From Candidatus Cloacimonadales bacterium (GTDB lineage: Bacteria > Cloacimonadota > Cloacimonadia > Cloacimonadales > JAFGVF01): a stretch of 64,000 nt of DNA. Where the stretch lies: the NCBI GenBank assembly GCA_963677495.2, contig CAXXOU010000004.1, positions 352,001 through 416,000 of the forward strand, given 5' to 3'. The notes under the pieces were generated by a model, which had not been told where the DNA came from, made no database searches, and saw nothing but the letters and a program-made list of their open reading frames with translations. Below are positions 432 through 62,977 of the stretch, piece by piece (the stretch's first letter is position 1; the number at the start of each line of letters is the position of its first letter). The position numbers and the translations under genes are program-made.

Positions 432-752
432 TTAGATTCCTCTTACATGATGATTCATGATTGAAATAAATAGTTTAAGCATTAATCTGTAAAGAAGGTT
501 CTTTATCATTGCTACTTTTATTTCCAATCTCTTTTAAGATTTTATCTACCATTTCACTGACGAACTCCTGATTTGGAAATGTACAATCTATTTCCGCAGG
601 CAAACATTATTTTACCCATGAGGGCACGACCAACAGTCCGGATTGTTGTAGTTTCAGATTTAAAGGTCATGGTTAGTACGCTGAAGAAGTATAGCGTCAT
701 AAATTAAGTGCTTTAATGGAAATCTTTAATAAAAACCCAAATGAGCCTGCTG

Positions 753-910
753 CATCCCTTCCAGTCCCGTGACTAAGACAAGTTTTCCATAAATATTTAA
801 GTTATCCACATCATGTGGATAAATCGAGGCATTGCACGAGAGGGTCACGAGAGGGTCACCTGTGGATTACCTTTGAAACACCTTTTTTAGTCAGGAGACT
901 GGAAGGGATG
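753..910 (+). repeat. Element A: inverted repeats enclosing an inverted DnaA-box pair and an 11-bp-period array
   Basis: IR 753-776 / 887-910 (22/24 match); TTATCCACA 802-810, TGTGGATAA 814-822; units CACGAGAGGGT x2, CACCTGTGGAT from 835. Confidence 0.85.
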
Positions 911-997
911 AAGAAGGGCAGATTTGGGGGAAATTTATTGCTGGGCTCATTGCGACCGGATGGGAGTTTGAGCAATAGCGAAATTTGGCAATACTCT

Positions 998-5005: not shown

Positions 5006-5128
5006 TCTAATCTTTGCTATTTTTCGCTATTGTCAATGGCAGTGAGAAATGGTACACGATGGCAGTGAAAAGTGGTACAAAACTGCCAACCTTTAAAAAT
5101 GACTACTTCAAGACAGTTTGGAGTAGGT

Positions 5129-6604
5129 ATGATTGGAGTAGAAGTGTATCATTCAATAAAAACTATGCATAAGCAAGGGCATAGTCAGCGTAAGATCGCA
5201 GAGGAGTTGTCTCTATCAAAGACAACAGTAGGTAAATACATAAATATGACACTTGATGAGTTCATGGAACTAATAAACAATAGCATTCGTGAAAGCAGTT
5301 TTGCCATATGTGAGCAATATGTCCGCGAAAGGCTTAGCAAATATCCACGATTAAGAGCTAGTGTACTATATTTAGAAGTTAAGAAAAAGTTCCCTGAGAT
5401 AAAAGCAAAAGACAGAGCTTTCCGAGATTTTGTTCGTAAGCTAAAGCAGACTTATCCTGTCGATAAATACCGTAATTATGCAGTAATCGAGACGGCTCCC
5501 GGTGTTCAGGTTCAAGTTGATCCAGGTGAGATGAAAGTAGTTTTGGGTAATAAACGTCAAAGAGTTTATTTTATAGTTTTTGTGCTTTCCCACTCGCGTC
5601 AAAGCTATGTCCATTGGAGCACAACACCATATAACACATCAAGGTTTATTGAAGCTCATCGTGAAGCTTTTATCTATTTTGAAGGTATCCCTTCAGAGTG
5701 TGTTTACGACCAGACAAAGCTTGTAGTAATACAGGAACGCTATCGGGAAGTAATCTTAAATAATCAGTTCCATCAGTTTGCAGCAAAAACGGGCTTTCAT
5801 CCTCATGTATGCGAAGGCTATGATCCACAAAGCAAGGGTAAAGTAGAGCGTAATGTCTCAGAAGTAAAGCATGGCTTTATGTATGGCAAAGAGTTCAAAG
5901 ACCTGGCAGACCTGCGTTCACGCGGACTTGAGTGGCTTTTACACTTTAACGGCAGAACCCATGGCACAACCCGTAAAGTACCATCAGAAGTATGGCAAGA
6001 AGAGAGGTTAAAGCTAAAAGATATTCCAGAGTTTATCTTCACTTTAGAAGTTCGTAATGCAGATAAAACAGGCTTAATCTCGTATGAGGGTAATAAGTAC
6101 TCTGTTCCATTAGAGTATCAGCGAAAACAGGTATATGTGCAAAAAGAAAAGAGCACTTTAGTGGTGATGGATATTTATACAAGAAAGGAAATCTGCCAAC
6201 ATGAGCTATGCACAGAAAAAGGCAAAATCATCAAAAACACTAATCATTATCGGGATTTTACGGTAGTGCTACAAGAGCTTATTGAGCGAGTAAAGGATGA
6301 GATGAGTGAATATATCCAAGGAGAAGAACTAATCCAGAGGCTTGTTAATGATAACCCTAAAATAGCAAGGGATCAGTTGAGAGCCTTAAGCAAGTTTAAG
6401 CGTAACTATGAAACAGATGTATGGGAGTCAGTGCTTCCTGAGGTAATGACTCTTTCGCATGTAAAGGCAACAGCCATAGAGAAGCTTCTGAATGCAAAAG
6501 TAAGACAAATGAAGCTAAATGAATTATCAGAATCAGAACCACAACAAGACTCAGAGAGTTCATTAATAGAGCGCTCATTAGATGACTACATGAAGGTGTT
6601 ATAA
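5129..6604 (+). CDS. istA: IS21 transposase IstA
   Basis: N-terminal HTH; ETAPGVQVQVD, YDQTK, PQSKGKVER DDE motifs. Start moved to ATG 5129, which follows a GGAG RBS. Confidence 0.93.
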   Translation: MIGVEVYHSIKTMHKQGHSQRKIAEELSLSKTTVGKYINMTLDEFMELINNSIRESSFAICEQYVRERLSKYPRLRASVLYLEVKKKFPEIKAKDRAFRDFVRKLKQTYPVDKYRNYAVIETAPGVQVQVDPGEMKVVLGNKRQRVYFIVFVLSHSRQSYVHWSTTPYNTSRFIEAHREAFIYFEGIPSECVYDQTKLVVIQERYREVILNNQFHQFAAKTGFHPHVCEGYDPQSKGKVERNVSEVKHGFMYGKEFKDLADLRSRGLEWLLHFNGRTHGTTRKVPSEVWQEERLKLKDIPEFIFTLEVRNADKTGLISYEGNKYSVPLEYQRKQVYVQKEKSTLVVMDIYTRKEICQHELCTEKGKIIKNTNHYRDFTVVLQELIERVKDEMSEYIQGEELIQRLVNDNPKIARDQLRALSKFKRNYETDVWESVLPEVMTLSHVKATAIEKLLNAKVRQMKLNELSESEPQQDSESSLIERSLDDYMKVL

Positions 6605-6605
6605 G

Positions 6606-7337
6606 ATGATAGAGATAACTAAAACATACATCAAAAGGGCTCGTTGTACTCATATTTTGAATACTCTTGAAAGTGCAGTTTTAGAAGCAGAGAAACAGAA
6701 TATGACTTATCTGGAGTTCGTACATTATCTATTTGAAAAAGAGAACTCAGGAAGGAATCAAACCAATATCAACAGAAGACTTAAACAGGCTCACATCCCG
6801 ATAATAAAGACCTTTGATGAGTTCGACTATGCTTATCAACAAGTAATAACCAAAAGACAAGTAAAGGAGTGGAAGAACTTTGTCTGGCTGGAGCAGAGGA
6901 GGAATATAATTTTAATGGGACCTCCGGGAGTAGGTAAGACTCATGTTGCAACAGCACTCAGTTATGAAGCAATAAAGGCAGGCTATAAGGTGGTGTTTTA
7001 TAATCTGAACAACCTTATCGAAGAACTTGTACTAGCTGAAGCAGATAACAACATAGATAAATATCTAAGCAATATAGCCAAGAATGATCTGATAGTTATA
7101 GATGAGATGGGGTATCTTCCTCTCCAGACAAAGGCAGCTAATCTGTTCTTTAGACTCATCCATCTCTTATACGAATTTAGATCAGTAATCATAACATCGA
7201 ATAGGTTGTTTAATGAATGGGGAGCTATTTTTAACGACAATGTGATAGCAACTGCTATTCTTGATAGATTACTCCATCACTCACAACCAATTACAATGCT
7301 CGGAGATAGCTTTAGACTAAGGAATTTTCAAAAATGA
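6606..7337 (+). CDS. istB: IS21 helper ATPase IstB
   Basis: Walker A GPPGVGKT; Walker B LIVIDEMGY; ITSN; AILDRLLHH. Confidence 0.95.
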   Translation: MIEITKTYIKRARCTHILNTLESAVLEAEKQNMTYLEFVHYLFEKENSGRNQTNINRRLKQAHIPIIKTFDEFDYAYQQVITKRQVKEWKNFVWLEQRRNIILMGPPGVGKTHVATALSYEAIKAGYKVVFYNLNNLIEELVLAEADNNIDKYLSNIAKNDLIVIDEMGYLPLQTKAANLFFRLIHLLYEFRSVIITSNRLFNEWGAIFNDNVIATAILDRLLHHSQPITMLGDSFRLRNFQK

Positions 7338-7390
7338 AGACTGTACCATTTTTAAATGCCAAACTGTACCAATTTAAAATGCCATTGACA

Positions 7391-7623
7391 CGCTATTCAC
7401 CATCTCCCTTCGGTAGCTATTGCGACAGCTTTAGAATAGCATACACAGTGAGTTTTGCAACAACTTAGCTATACTTGCTGCCCTTTTTACTCCCTTTTAC
7501 TGTTCTATCCGCCCACGCACTGCGTACGCACTGTGTACCCACTGTGAAGGCACTGCCAACCCACTGTTTCACTGGGTGCACAGTGCGTGCACAGTGGGAA
7601 AACAGTGGGATGACTACGTTTTG
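7391..7623 (+). repeat. CACTG-array element copy 1 (left remnant at 5011-5030, split by IS21)
   Basis: CACTG at 7518/7529/7540/7551/7562 and CAGTG at 7581/7592/7603; homologous to 46919-47240 (reverse) and 55267-55589. Confidence 0.9.
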
Positions 7624-13367: not shown

Positions 13368-13511
13368 TTACTGCTCCGCTTCAAGAACTTCTTTGCACCG
13401 TTAAGTAAGTTATGCACATGATGTGGATAACTTTAGGGGTTCATAGGGAGGGTCTAGGGAGGCTATAGGGAGGGACAAGCGAGATTCTAGGTTCTTGAAG
13501 CGGAGCAGTAA
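13368..13511 (+). repeat. Element B: perfect 21-bp inverted repeats enclosing a DnaA-box pair and an 11-bp array
   Basis: TTACTGCTCCGCTTCAAGAAC 13368-13388 and its reverse complement 13491-13511; TTATGCACA 13410-13418, TGTGGATAA 13422-13430; units ATAGGGAGGGT, CTAGGGAGGCT, ATAGGGAGGGA. Confidence 0.88.
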
Positions 13512-22565: not shown

Positions 22566-22750
22566 TACCTCCCAAATTCTGTGTCATCATAGTGCCCTAT
22601 TACTGCTCTTTATTAAGAACTTACTTCACACGTCACTGATGTTATGAACATGATGTGGATAACTTTGGCCTTCGCCAAGGAGGGTCCTTGGTGGCTCCTT
22701 GGTGGGTCCAATGTAATTCCATGTTTTAAATGGGGTAAATCATAGTCTGG
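22566..22750 (+). repeat. Element C: DnaA-box pair and 11-bp array; inverted copy of element D
   Basis: TTATGAACA-TGA-TGTGGATAA 22642-22662; units CCAAGGAGGGT, CCTTGGTGGCT, CCTTGGTGGGT from 22675; aligns over about 185 bp with the reverse complement of 34714-34903. Confidence 0.9.
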
Positions 22751-32295: not shown

Positions 32296-32916
32296 ATGAA
32301 TCAAAAAGAAATTTGTTTAAATTATGTAAAAAAATGGCTTCCAAGAACTTCGGATACCGTAATACCTTTACTTGAAAGCTATCACGAACTACTTGTTGAA
32401 GTTAATAGTGTCATTAATGTTTATTCTCGTAAAATGGATACAGATGATATTTGGACACTTCATTTTCTTGATAGCCTACTTCTACTCCAAACACAGGTAA
32501 AATTATCAGGGAAAGTTCTTGATTTTGGTACTGGTGGAGGATTACCCGGTATTCCATTAAAGATATGTTTCCCTGATATAGATCTTAGCATGCTTGATGC
32601 ACGCAGAAAAAAGATCCAAGCGATTGATGAGATGGTTGAAGAGCTCCAGCTCAATAACGTTACAGGCATATGGTCAAGACTTGAAGATTACTGCAAATAT
32701 AGAAAAAATAGTTATGACTATATTGTATGCCGAAGCGTGAGGATAACTTCTGAGTTAAAACCATTACTTCTCAAATTGTTAAAACCCAATGGTAAAATTG
32801 TCCTTTACAAAAGTAAAAACTTAGATGACGTGGAACAGTTCAGTAATAAGAAAATATTGGACGTAAGTCAACCAGTACTGGGGACACGTAAATTAATTGT
32901 AATTGGAAATAAATAA
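32296..32916 (+). CDS. rsmG: 16S rRNA m7G527 methyltransferase
   Basis: HFLDSL; VLDFGTGGGLPGIPL; typical position upstream of parAB. Confidence 0.93.
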   Translation: MNQKEICLNYVKKWLPRTSDTVIPLLESYHELLVEVNSVINVYSRKMDTDDIWTLHFLDSLLLLQTQVKLSGKVLDFGTGGGLPGIPLKICFPDIDLSMLDARRKKIQAIDEMVEELQLNNVTGIWSRLEDYCKYRKNSYDYIVCRSVRITSELKPLLLKLLKPNGKIVLYKSKNLDDVEQFSNKKILDVSQPVLGTRKLIVIGNK

Positions 32917-32919
32917 TTA

Positions 32920-33678
32920 ATGGGAAAAATCATCGCAATTGCCAACCAAAAAGGTGGTGTAGGCAAAACAACAACGGCTGTTAATCTTGCTGCTGCTTTA
33001 AGTATACTAGAAAAAAAGACCTTACTTATTGATCTGGATCCACAAGGAAACACAACAAGTGCTTATGGGATTGATAAAGACAAACTTGATAGACATATCT
33101 ACCATTGTATAATTAATTATGAACCAATCATAAATATCATCAAAGATACTGATATTGAGTTTCTTAAGATTGCACCAACAAATGTACATCTCGCCGGAGC
33201 AGAAATAGAATTAGTTAAAGATTTCACCAGGGAGAAAAAACTGCGTGAAGTAATAGACCCTGTTAGAAACAGATATGATTATATAATTATTGATTGTCCC
33301 CCATCTCTTAATCTGTTAACTGTCAATGCACTTACTGCATGTACTGATGTGTTGATACCAATCCAATGTGAATATTATGCGTTGGAAGGAGTTAGTCAGT
33401 TGATGAATAGCCTTCGCATTATCCAACAAAGCTTAAATCCTAATCTAAATCTTTTCGGGGTTCTGCTTACAATGTATGATAGCAGACTCAATTTATCTAA
33501 ACAGGTTGCAAAAGAAGTTAGAAGGTACTTCAAAGAGAAAGTATTTGAAACAATCATTATCAGAAATGTAAAACTCAGTGAGGCTCCCGGTTTTGGAAAA
33601 CCTATCTTCCACTATGACATCAAGTCTACCGGGGCAAAAAATTACTTAAAATTTGCAATGGAACTAATTGAAAGATGA
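32920..33678 (+). CDS. parA: Chromosome partitioning ATPase ParA/Soj
   Basis: NQKGGVGKTTT; DLDPQGN; IDCPPSL; QCEYYALEG. Confidence 0.95.
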   Translation: MGKIIAIANQKGGVGKTTTAVNLAAALSILEKKTLLIDLDPQGNTTSAYGIDKDKLDRHIYHCIINYEPIINIIKDTDIEFLKIAPTNVHLAGAEIELVKDFTREKKLREVIDPVRNRYDYIIIDCPPSLNLLTVNALTACTDVLIPIQCEYYALEGVSQLMNSLRIIQQSLNPNLNLFGVLLTMYDSRLNLSKQVAKEVRRYFKEKVFETIIIRNVKLSEAPGFGKPIFHYDIKSTGAKNYLKFAMELIER

Positions 33679-34511
33679 AACAAAAACTCGGTAAAGGCTT
33701 AGACGTGCTACTACAGAATATCCCGGAAGCTACTAATGAAACTGCCGGCATAACTACTTTAAGAATTGAAATTGTTAAACCTAATCGTTATCAACCTAGA
33801 AAAGTATTCGATGAAGATAAGCTATCTAATTTAGCCGAATCCATCATAGAAAACGGTATTATTCAACCCATTATTGTTACTAAACGTGAAGACTCTGATT
33901 ATGAGCTCATTGCTGGTGAACGCAGATTAGAAGCTGCTAAAATGGCTGGATTGGAAAGAGTTCCGGTTATTATCAGAAGTGTTTCCAGAAGGGAGCAACT
34001 TCAATATGCTATTATTGAGAATATTCAACGTGAGCAGTTAAACCCTATTGAAGAGGCTCAAGCTTATCAGATGATGATTGATGACTTCAATTATACCCAC
34101 GAGCAACTTGCAATCTCAATGGGCAAAAGTAGATCCCTTGTAACTAATCTACTAAGACTTCTAAAGCTCCCTCAAAAGATTCATGAGTACATTGCAAACG
34201 GAGAGATTACAACTGGACACGCTAAGACTATTCTCTCTTTACCTGAGAATAAGCAATTAGATTTTGCTAACCTGATTATTGAGAAACATCTCTCTGTAAG
34301 ACAAGCTGAAGAGCTTGTTAAAGAGCAAAAGTCTGCACCAAAAGCAAAACCGATCTCAAAACATATTCGACACAAAAACTATGAGGAAAGCCTTAAGCAG
34401 ATTTATGGTGTTAAGATTCAAGTAGTTGAAAATGCCGGCAAAGGCAAAGTTGTTTTCCATTATAAGAACAAAGAAGAACTAACGAAACTCCTGGAAGGAT
34501 TACAGAAATAG
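33675..34511 (+). CDS. parB: Chromosome partitioning protein ParB/Spo0J
   Basis: LGKGL; YQPRK; GIIQPI; AGERR; ENIQREQLNPIEEA; HTH. Confidence 0.95.
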   Translation: MKQKLGKGLDVLLQNIPEATNETAGITTLRIEIVKPNRYQPRKVFDEDKLSNLAESIIENGIIQPIIVTKREDSDYELIAGERRLEAAKMAGLERVPVIIRSVSRREQLQYAIIENIQREQLNPIEEAQAYQMMIDDFNYTHEQLAISMGKSRSLVTNLLRLLKLPQKIHEYIANGEITTGHAKTILSLPENKQLDFANLIIEKHLSVRQAEELVKEQKSAPKAKPISKHIRHKNYEESLKQIYGVKIQVVENAGKGKVVFHYKNKEELTKLLEGLQK

Positions 34512-34713: not shown

Positions 34714-34903
34714 GTCCATGACTATGATTTGCCCCCCATTAAAAACATGGAACCAGTTAGGACCCACCAAGGAGCCACCAAGGACCCTCCTTGGCGAAGG
34801 TCAAAGTTATCCACACTATGTGTATAACTTCAGTCACGTGTGAAGTAAGTTTTTAATGAAGAGCTGTAATAGGGCAATATGATGACACAGAATTTGGAGG
34901 GTA
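34714..34903 (-). repeat. Element D: inverted copy of element C
   Basis: TTATCCACA 34807-34815, TGTGTATAA 34819-34827; 11-bp units at 34751-34794. Confidence 0.9.
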
Positions 34904-46918: not shown

Positions 46919-47240
46919 CAAAACGCAGTCATCCCACTGTTTTCCCACTGTGCACCCACTGTGCACCCACTGAAACAGTGGGTTGACAGTGCCTTCACAG
47001 TGCAGACACAGTGCAGGCACAGTGCGTTGATGGATAGAGTAGTTAAAGAGTGCAAAAAGGGCATTAAGTATAGCTAAGTAATTGTAAAATGCACTGTGTA
47101 TGTTTTTCTGGAGCTGTCGCAATAGCGACCGGAGGGAGATGGCGAATAGCGGAAATGGTGAATGTACATCACTATGAGTCAAATTCCCTTCGGTCGCTAT
47201 GACTCCAATGATGTAAGTCATTGCAAATTGCACTGCGTAT
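46919..47240 (-). repeat. CACTG-array element copy 2 (about 320 bp)
   Basis: Reverse complement aligns along its length with 55267-55589. Confidence 0.9.
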
Positions 47241-52613: not shown

Positions 52614-52700
52614 TTGACAACGGGTTGACCACGGGTAATCCACGGGTTGACCACGGCTTCTGTGGTTTGGGCGTGGATTACCCGTGGTTCAGCCGTGGTT
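52614..52700. repeat. CCACGG/CCGTGG 11-bp-period two-armed array
   Basis: TTGACAACGGG TTGACCACGGG TAATCCACGGG TTGACCACGGC, then GTGG at 52662/52673/52684/52695; perfect 17-bp IR 52628-52644 / 52672-52688. Confidence 0.88.
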
Positions 52701-55266: not shown

Positions 55267-55589
55267 CATACACAGTGCGATTACCAATAACTTACAACGT
55301 TGGAGTCATAACGAGTTTACGAGTTGGACTCATAGCGTTGTACCTTTGCCACTTTTCGCTATTCGCCCATCTCCCTTTGGTCGCTATTGCTACAGCTTCA
55401 GTTTACTCACACAGTGTCATTTGCAATAACTTAGCTACATTTCTTGCCCTTTTTACTCTCTTTCACTGCTCTATCCATCAACGCACTGTGCACGCACTGT
55501 GATACCACTGTGAAGGCACTGCCAACCCACTGTTTCACTGGGTGCACAGTGCGTGCACAGTGGGAAAACAGTGGGATGACTGCGTTTTG
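55267..55589 (+). repeat. CACTG-array element copy 3 (about 320 bp)
   Basis: Array almost identical to 7516-7623; left part homologous to 47040-47240 (reverse). Confidence 0.9.
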
Positions 55590-62717: not shown

Positions 62718-62977
62718 GTAGTCCGATCACCCTTGATCGGACTTAAGTTGCACTTCCACCCACCTTTGGAATGGTCGAAGACCTTGCAAATGGTGAGTTC
62801 GTAGGACACTCTGCCAGCTAGTCAGATTAGCGGAGCTAAGCAATTCCACGCTTAGAGGTATCGTTTTCACGACGAAGTGTTTCTTCCTTCGAAGTGTACC
62901 ATTTGCAAGGTCTTCGACCATTCCAAAGGTACGGATAAGCTGATCATGAGGACCGGGAAGCGGACAGGATGTCCGCG
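62718..62977. repeat. Composite REP/REPIN-like cluster between convergent genes
   Basis: GTAG-led hairpin AGTCCGATCA-CCCT-TGATCGGACT (62720-62743); perfect 33-bp IR 62762-62794 / 62898-62930; GCGGACAGGATGTCCGC hairpin near 62960-62976. Confidence 0.85.

Follow-up and report, generated by a model that had tools for sequence, protein, structure and literature searches.

The DnaA-binding sites known outside replication origins are either single loci (datA and the DARS) or one box in the end of a transposon. In the available portions of the published accounts, the DnaA box is a 9-mer with the consensus TTWTNCACA, DARS and datA are single loci at a conserved distance from oriC (PMC4585315), and boxes I and II of the DARS are 5 bp apart and accompanied by a third box (PMC6868365). 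Again as given in partial texts, ParR of R1 binds 11-bp repeats (PMC9426499), and REPIN-RAYT systems include several repeat populations per genome, each flanking one cognate gene and tracked phylogenetically (bioRxiv 10.1101/2021.07.10.451892). Against this background, a dispersed family with two boxes under selection, found in tens of copies and in all four examined genomes of a genus, was unexpected. A literature search (most subscription journals lay outside its coverage) found no description of such an element or of the gene-array pairing reported below, and the available part of PMC8542988 makes no mention of DnaA or such DNA repeats. No match to a known IS end or Rfam family was found using nhmmer and an Rfam scan, in agreement with the first-pass annotation, and we regard the box-pair module as previously undescribed.

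The window, which is the whole 64,000-nt stretch of DNA analysed, belongs to the genome of an uncultured Cloacimonadota bacterium (G000; 3.41 Mb, four contigs), and its congeners are G001, G002 and G003. Four intergenic loci with an inverted pair of DnaA boxes had been reported, and all were confirmed, at 802–822, 13410–13430 and 22642–22662 (one mismatch) on the forward strand and at 34807–34827 on the reverse strand (copies A to D). The four matches with up to two mismatches compare with 0.07 expected, and none of 100 shuffles reached four. The reported geometry, a 12-bp gap followed by units of 11 bp, was likewise found at each locus, and further copies were found genome-wide and in the congeners. 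In G000, the box pair occurs 58, 75 and 81 times at zero, one and two mismatches, respectively, and a set of 78 copies, with additions from nhmmer and chance matches removed, fell into five subfamilies. Their 6-bp words are CACGAG (A, 24 copies), CTAGGG (B, 36 copies), CCAAGG/CCTTGG (C, six copies), ATCAAG (E, five copies) and AGTAAG (F, seven copies). The variable part of the unit is thus specific to the subfamily, five words serving 78 copies, and not to the locus as had been thought. A first unit ending in GAGGGT, thought to be universal, is found in 62 of the 78 copies and never in subfamilies E and F. All 78 copies are intergenic, apart from one inside a short doubtful ORF (custom ORF caller), and there is no bias in their orientation to genes (tandem 20 and 18, divergent 27, convergent 12). 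Contigs of DNA from the same sample span copies B and C, so these two are not an assembly artefact; the four sequencing runs represent one sample and hence are not independent support.

The order of the parts is left arm, AT-rich spacer, AG and the box pair, the reverse complement of the word, a 6-bp centre, approximately 4.5 units each best parsed as the 6-bp word and a 5-bp linker, and the right arm. The element is a dyad whose centre is formed by the final 6 bp of the '12-bp gap'. Each arm is about 52 bp away from this centre, and the median arm-to-arm length is 138–186 bp depending on the subfamily. Copy A (746–917, forward strand; subfamily A, word CACGAG) has 44-nt arms at 746–789 and 874–917 that are 80 % complementary, and an ssDNA fold z of −5.6. 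Its boxes (802–810 and 814–822) flank a 3-bp spacer, the 12-bp gap (823–834) is made up of the flipped word (823–828) and the dyad centre (829–834), and the track of about 4.5 units occupies 835–884. Copy B (13368–13511, forward strand; subfamily B, words CTAGGG/ATAGGG) has 21-nt arms at 13368–13388 and 13491–13511 that are 100 % complementary and copy-specific, and a track at 13443–13492. Copies C and D both belong to subfamily C, have about 70 bp of left flank in common, and have outer ends that are approximate (the family median for copy C). Copy C (22595–22749, forward strand) has its one mismatch in the left box, TTATGAACA, and a track at 22675–22724. Copy D (34720–34874, reverse strand) has boxes at 34819–34827 and 34807–34815 and a track at 34745–34794. 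It is located approximately 230 bp past parB, in a gidB-parA-parB group (32296–34511 in the window) that is found at about 385 kb on contig C4, distant from dnaA/oriC (C1:869 kb).

The two boxes are 3 bp apart in 77 of the 78 copies, and when spacings of 0–11 bp in either orientation were counted across G000, 75 pairs were found at 3 bp and at most one at any other spacing. The gap from box pair to track is 12 bp in all 78 copies, including the single copy with a 5-bp box spacer. The arms are the least conserved part of the element, being mosaic and partly copy-specific, and no short REP palindromes were seen in them by eye. In the CCCGAG array family, inverted words are found in G000 at the place that is occupied in G003 by a box pair, with the same spacing (counted by eye). 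From these sequences, the box pair appears to stand in for part of an inverted track.

Within subfamilies, the specified bases of the boxes vary in only 8 of 1200 cells (0.7 %), compared with 14 of 150 (9 %) for the free fifth base, 30 of 225 for the 3-bp spacer and 292 of 1425 for the AT spacer, and the first two words vary in 5 of 900 (75 of the 78 copies, leaving out three that are interrupted or gapped). In 56 of 77 copies the fifth bases of the two boxes could not pair with each other, so the constraint is not one of hairpin pairing. An exact TTATNCACA occurs at least once in 77 of the 78 copies and twice in 58. A mismatch in the right box is fixed in subfamilies E (all five copies) and F (all seven), and one box is mismatched in the main box-pair families of G001 and G003. 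The box variants are also those used at the host oriC, downstream of dnaA, in G000, G001 and G002, and the host DnaA retains the RKDHTT recognition motif of domain IV. In the sister genus, five of seven genomes have a single inverted pair of this kind, identically spaced, just upstream of a gene start; the gene is dnaA by Pfam in one of the five, and the other four have the same start. The elements probably carry genuine DnaA sites, and binding by the host DnaA is predicted to be likely.

Arrays with this period are a wider class. In G000, 283 arrays of period 11 were found, compared with 1–54 at other periods from 7 to 16, and the refined set contains 294 elements, namely the 78 with boxes, 205 in 13 box-less families and 11 singletons. 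In the window, the box-less members are three of the ACAGTG family, at 7514–7607 and 55481–55562 (both forward strand) and 46928–47002 (strand unassigned), and one of the ACCACG family at 52617–52699 (strand unassigned). The earlier interpretation of the whole as a DnaA-binding module is retained for the box pair, which is repeated, with conserved box bases and geometry. As the same tracks are found in about 205 box-less elements and arrays are paired with small paralogs, the array as part of a DnaA module is unsupported or unproven.

Five box-pair copies in G000 adjoin small look-alike genes, which are part of a family of approximately 150-aa paralogs with 24 members (22 full length and two fragments) located in repeat-rich islands. 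An array was present within 1.3 kb upstream of 14 of the 15 clade II genes and one of the seven clade I genes (Fisher P=6e-4), against a background of 17 % for all genes and 46 % for genes with a long upstream gap. The clade II proteins are basic (pI 7.7–9.7, one 5.8) and those of clade I are acidic (4.5–5.8). When a near-identical A pair was collapsed, 12 distinct array families were found upstream of the 13 independent genes (null mean 7.4, P=5e-4). A home gene could be assigned to each of subfamilies A, B, C and E, at a distance of 0.2–1.2 kb from the home copy (1.2 kb for B). The F array is the second one upstream of its nearest gene, where the nearest array is of the CATATA family, and there is no home gene for the TAACGG family, which has 21 copies. 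Many of the paralogs, whether of clade I or clade II, have a shared promoter-like motif, TATAAT/TATAGT then AGAGG, between the array and the gene (e.g. C4:23692 and C1:775689), and 11 of its 21 genome matches are upstream of these paralogs. No sigma-70 promoter was found between the C home copy and its gene.

In the congeners, an array was found upstream of 14 of 18 paralogs, six of these with a box pair (19 of 24 matches were examined, five fragments being left out, and one more had no upstream DNA). The four array-less paralogs belong to clades that are also array-less in G000. Box-pair elements of the B/C type are found throughout the clade (support 98/93) in which the B and C genes of G000, G001 and G002 group together. 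A CACTG track is common to the ACAGTG gene and its ortholog in G001, and the ACCCAAG subfamily is also kept. Protein similarity and array similarity are correlated (Mantel rho 0.36, P=2e-4), with a value of 0.11 for control DNA by the start codon (27 pairs). The paralog family is found in 28 of 41 genomes of the order Cloacimonadales. Forty paralog loci were sampled from its other families, and at 17 of them a flipping word track lies 80–375 bp upstream (by eye), each with its own word (7 of 10 in G013, 4 of 8 in G014, 4 of 6 in G025 and 1 of 2 in each of G026 and G037). This compares with a word track within 400 bp upstream of 9.6 % of G000 genes. The other 23 of the 40 have no clear word track, four scoring through low-complexity DNA only and the six from the sister genera having none (by eye). 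In the metagenome, 7 of 13 paralog loci reach the array threshold. Because a gene and its upstream array duplicate together, their phylogenies could agree without any function and kin are not independent, and co-duplication explains part of the pairing. Its persistence across families and the loss of the array alongside basic charge in clade I argue for function.

This pairing resembles both ParR-parC, the type II plasmid centromeres, in which direct repeats are located upstream of a small gene and cognate pairs are family-specific, and REPIN-RAYT, in which extragenic palindromic repeats of about 100–200 bp are found in tens of copies with inverted repeats around a spacer. The element studied here differs from parC in being chromosomal, multiplied far from the gene and a dyad with a flip, and no conserved ParM-like NTPase neighbour was seen by eye across the 24 paralogs. 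It differs from REPINs in that the cognate gene has no Y1 profile and is not a Y1/HUH transposase, and in that the conserved part is the interior, with its boxes and phased words, rather than short REP end hairpins.

Among cluster representatives, 365 relatives of the approximately 150-aa protein were found, and its neighbours in the Atlas are hypothetical proteins of Cloacimonadota. A set of 144 homologs gave no Pfam family and no consistent PHROG match, the Cox-like PHROG match of one of the 144 being put down to chance, and none of 37 candidates was a viral relative of the box-clade protein. The predicted structure (pLDDT 94.7) has a three-strand N-terminus followed by helices. A fold search gave no match at E≤0.001 in PDB or BFVD, the best Z being 4.0 among 48,161 chains, and the best E in a PDB sequence search was 0.15. 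Approximately 14 of the 50 weak fold matches are to what we take to be ribbon-helix-helix DNA binders (two titles say so), at Z 2.7–3.9, which is the noise level, with about 45–50 residues aligned at an rmsd of 1.8–3.9 over these short matches. As the fold matches are weak and non-significant, we only infer DNA binding by this protein. K2, G14, R33, Y72 and L109 are nearly invariant, and most clade II N-termini have a net charge of +3 to +12. A weak lead is a predicted-structure TM of 0.51 over 109 residues to a cluster with 30 % DUF6266 (PF19781), a domain of Bacteroidota to which the protein has a weak structural likeness and which has no Pfam match in the 144 members. The G-x-S-G-K start of the protein is, we assume, similar to that of DUF6266, which is not mentioned in the literature searched.

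A scan of GTDB with the full pattern recovered 29 stretches, 28 of them from three Cloacimonadota records (22 from Ca. Zophobacter franzmannii) and the last a Streptococcus box pair without a track. At up to two mismatches, 21, 59 and 66 pairs were found in G001, G002 and G003, respectively, and six and two in two genomes from other families. In G001, 11 of 15 matches inspected were elements with a track and one more was a truncated copy. In G000, box-pair copies are rare near the skew-defined terminus, with 7 of 78 within 400 kb (23.5 % of the genome), compared with 57 of 205 other arrays (Fisher P=4e-4). This avoidance rests on families A and B and is also seen for the box-less CCCGAG family (0 of 19), while the ACAGTG and GGCCAAG array families favour the terminus region. 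In the complete congener G001 there is no origin-side bias, the copies being 0.5–1.5 Mb from dnaA. A bias that is driven by families and not replicated in G001 is not evidence for the titration role suggested earlier, and a datA-like reading is weakened. Outward spread from the home copy is significant for B (with both contig orders tried) and inconsistent in the other families. Like DARS1, DARS2 and datA, the elements are non-origin chromosomal loci with oppositely oriented DnaA boxes, but their positions vary by family and species, being terminus-poor in G000 and origin-distal in G001. The proposed likeness to the DARS was not borne out, given the 3-bp spacer and two boxes with no third consensus box.

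Evidence of rearrangement was found in subfamily C of G001 (ten copies), where the core in L199 and L203 is inverted relative to L191, L194 and L201 within the same outer flanks of approximately 190 bp. Here the core has been turned over by way of its arms, and duplication of larger composites has also taken place. The simplest route of spread would be recombination, and we infer this route, like any physiological role, only tentatively. The home copy L209 shows an apparent flank swap relative to L208/L105, with a distal flank matching L064; either this is a genuine rearrangement or the assembly is chimeric across about 50 identical bases, and no weight is placed on it here. In G001, the gene ends by copies A, C and D are found without an element; the neighbouring genes differ there, and hence no element boundary can be read. 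One in-genome candidate for an empty site (from 78 copies) dissolved on alignment, the same-sample contigs contained no joint skipping B or C, and no copying intermediate was found in G000 or in these contigs.

The fixed geometry, the selection on boxes and words, the gene-array pairing and the core inversions are observed, and they indicate that the element is real, present throughout the genus and selected, that its boxes are probably DnaA sites and that the small proteins are probably its cognate readers. The explanation that we tentatively favour is a phased docking site for family-specific readers, with DnaA alongside in fixed phase and copies spread by recombination. Each element would be a double-stranded protein-docking site, its 11-bp track, with one word per helical turn and a flip at the 6-bp centre, being read cooperatively by the family-specific protein of approximately 150 aa. 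We consider the predicted binding of the track by its cognate protein to be rather likely. The home copy upstream of the reader gene would probably be an autoregulatory operator. In the A, B, C, E and F lineages, two real DnaA boxes would have replaced the left half of the dyad, and host DnaA and the reader protein would assemble side by side in fixed phase. The site and its home gene would most likely be coupled to the state of DnaA, with sequestration of DnaA by the 78 copies as a by-product. Copies would multiply within the chromosome by recombination via the inverted arms and be inherited vertically as populations in the manner of REPINs. By analogy, the system may combine the binding logic of ParR-parC with the population logic of RAYT-REPIN, with DnaA boxes borrowed as in the Tn5 end, although the element itself lies outside the definitions of the DARS, MITEs, REPINs and replication origins. 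A broader version, which we consider doubtful, is a new class of repeat reader in which a small protein with a new fold has a dozen specificities, each reading and propagating its own phased repeat, with one lineage wired to DnaA and acting on replication timing. Such a class might be a transposase-free counterpart of RAYT-REPIN or, alternatively, a set of chromosome-domain labels. On that reading, the one repeat family that accounts for some 40 % of the consensus initiator sites would influence replication timing. Whichever version applies, the box-pair family amounts to a natural experiment in titrating the initiator, the dozen or so repeat words, each matched to one of a dozen paralogs, offer a ready-made recognition code for a protein family without a known fold, and the paralogs are a candidate answer to what reads or spreads some 280 phased arrays.

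That the elements are selfish and non-autonomous, of the MITE or REPIN type, with a transposase elsewhere, boxes that are host-factor sites and small genes that are merely hot-spot neighbours, appears unlikely. They are extragenic, randomly oriented to genes and bounded by terminal inverted arms, their number ranges from 12 to 78 between congeners, and the earlier suggestion of a non-autonomous element is upheld in that they are dispersed, mosaic and invertible. It is not upheld by any target-site duplication, empty site or linked transposase. Direct-repeat lengths at the arm ends equalled the control (78 copies; arm ends are approximate), and the arms are the least conserved part, unlike transposase-bound ends. 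Searches of one genome with nhmmer found only copies and related arrays, with no coding relative or autonomous element with the same ends, and on these grounds membership of the MITEs was rejected; the arms are present but variable and mosaic. There are 14 matches to Y1 transposases in G000, but a box-pair copy is found within 3 kb of only two; a RAYT link was rejected, the 14 loci having no consistent flanking and none being fused to a DnaA C-terminal domain (one PF08299 match only). The outside end of Tn5/IS50 is a precedent for a dispersed-element end with a DnaA site (the available part of PMC3347997), though it has one box in a transposase-bound end, compared with two interior boxes, no transposase and no target duplication here. 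Furthermore, hot spots would not be expected to give one array family per gene. That the small protein is itself the mobiliser we consider very unlikely. It would then be a compact recombinase or transposase with a new fold, forming a polymer along the track and inverting or copying the element, with DnaA setting the time of the reaction. This reading would fit the RAYT-like logic of a gene flanked by its own repeat family (bioRxiv 10.1101/2021.07.10.451892, in its available part), the core inversions in G001 and the 94–99 % conservation of K2, R33 and Y72 in 144 homologs. Against this, no HUH or recombinase profile or fold match was found, Y72 is within a helix, may be structural and is kept in the acidic array-less clade, and ordinary homologous recombination between 20–40-bp arms can explain the inversions.

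A module for DnaA alone, in which the strong pair nucleates a DnaA-ATP filament on a track of weak boxes and the copies titrate or recycle DnaA, is distinctly unlikely. Units across 15 word families read N-G-W-G-N-N-T, which corresponds to G2, G4 and T7 of TGTGGATAA when read on the same strand as the adjacent box, and 135 of the genome's 322 TTATNCACA boxes (42 %) are inside box-pair elements, which avoid the terminus in G000. In E. coli oriC a strong box adjoins a low-affinity array of 9-mers that are 2 bp apart and so have an 11-bp period (the available part of PMC6070618), but here the words are family-specific and conserved, the 78 copies are dispersed and box-less tracks are found elsewhere. 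The units match the DnaA box at just 3.7–6.2 of nine bases, the G-W-G pattern is also present in box-less families (by eye), the first unit begins 16 bp from the strong box, and tightly conserved family-specific words are not a DnaA requirement. The distances from dnaA in G001 and the terminus-poor, box-less CCCGAG family also count against this explanation. The oriC region, which is conserved among G000, G001 and G002, has a run of TAG repeats; three TAG repeats within 110 bp are present at oriC and in none of the 78 copies, which thus have no run of DnaA-trios as described in the available part of PMC10316083. A family of structured RNA or ssDNA hairpins, with the boxes an incidental palindrome, is extremely improbable. 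Although the ssDNA folds are strong (z of −5.6 and −7.6) and arm pairing is copy-specific in A (P=0.025) and B (P=0.0009), in which self-complementarity of the arms exceeds cross-pairing, as it does not in C, E or F, there is no orientation bias to transcription, mismatches are fixed at the fifth box base and the helical phasing is strict. No Rfam covariance model matched at its gathering score, the window containing four tRNAs only.

A phage or plasmid origin was also rejected, six viral matches being plain DnaA-box clusters without a track. A scan of 39 proteins of the window, which did not extend to the gene on the left of copy A, found no Rep family. Two groups of phage contigs (L046–L051) have DnaA-box clusters that include the same inverted pair, in or adjoining genes before terminase-like ORFs (by eye).

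Several other features were observed. An IS21-family element is present at 5031–7390 in the window (istA 5072–6604, istB 6606–7337), with 17 genome copies by end count. Four of the copies are within or abut 11-bp arrays, and one of these interrupts a B copy inside its left DnaA box (C3:196549–198909). A separate repeat family with 33-bp perfect inverted arms (GACCTT...AATGGT type), found in the window at 1018–1150 and 62762–62930, often adjoins box-pair elements. The region 9433–31814 contains a cluster of genes for large secreted proteins with lamin-tail, endonuclease I, PKD and FlgD/Por C-terminal domains and near-duplicate segments. In G000, back-to-back pairs of the small paralogs always consist of one clade I and one clade II gene, around 5–6 kb of variable defence-like cargo (C4:777582–783021, C3:291418–297691, C4:1498358–1504076 and C1:774897–782346). 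A second unannotated paralog family of about 195 aa has seven copies, five of them convergent with and downstream of clade II genes within 3.3 kb (loci at C3:297731–298318, C4:1464993–1465571, C1:784049–784627 and C4:774532–775739). No Pfam match above the cut-off was found for three that were scanned, and a partnership with the clade II proteins is possible. The oriC is followed by a lipoprotein-like gene, not dnaN (L015:2027 onward), and a gene that we take by eye to resemble dnaN (G000 C4:783855) adjoins the clade I paralog at C4:782563.
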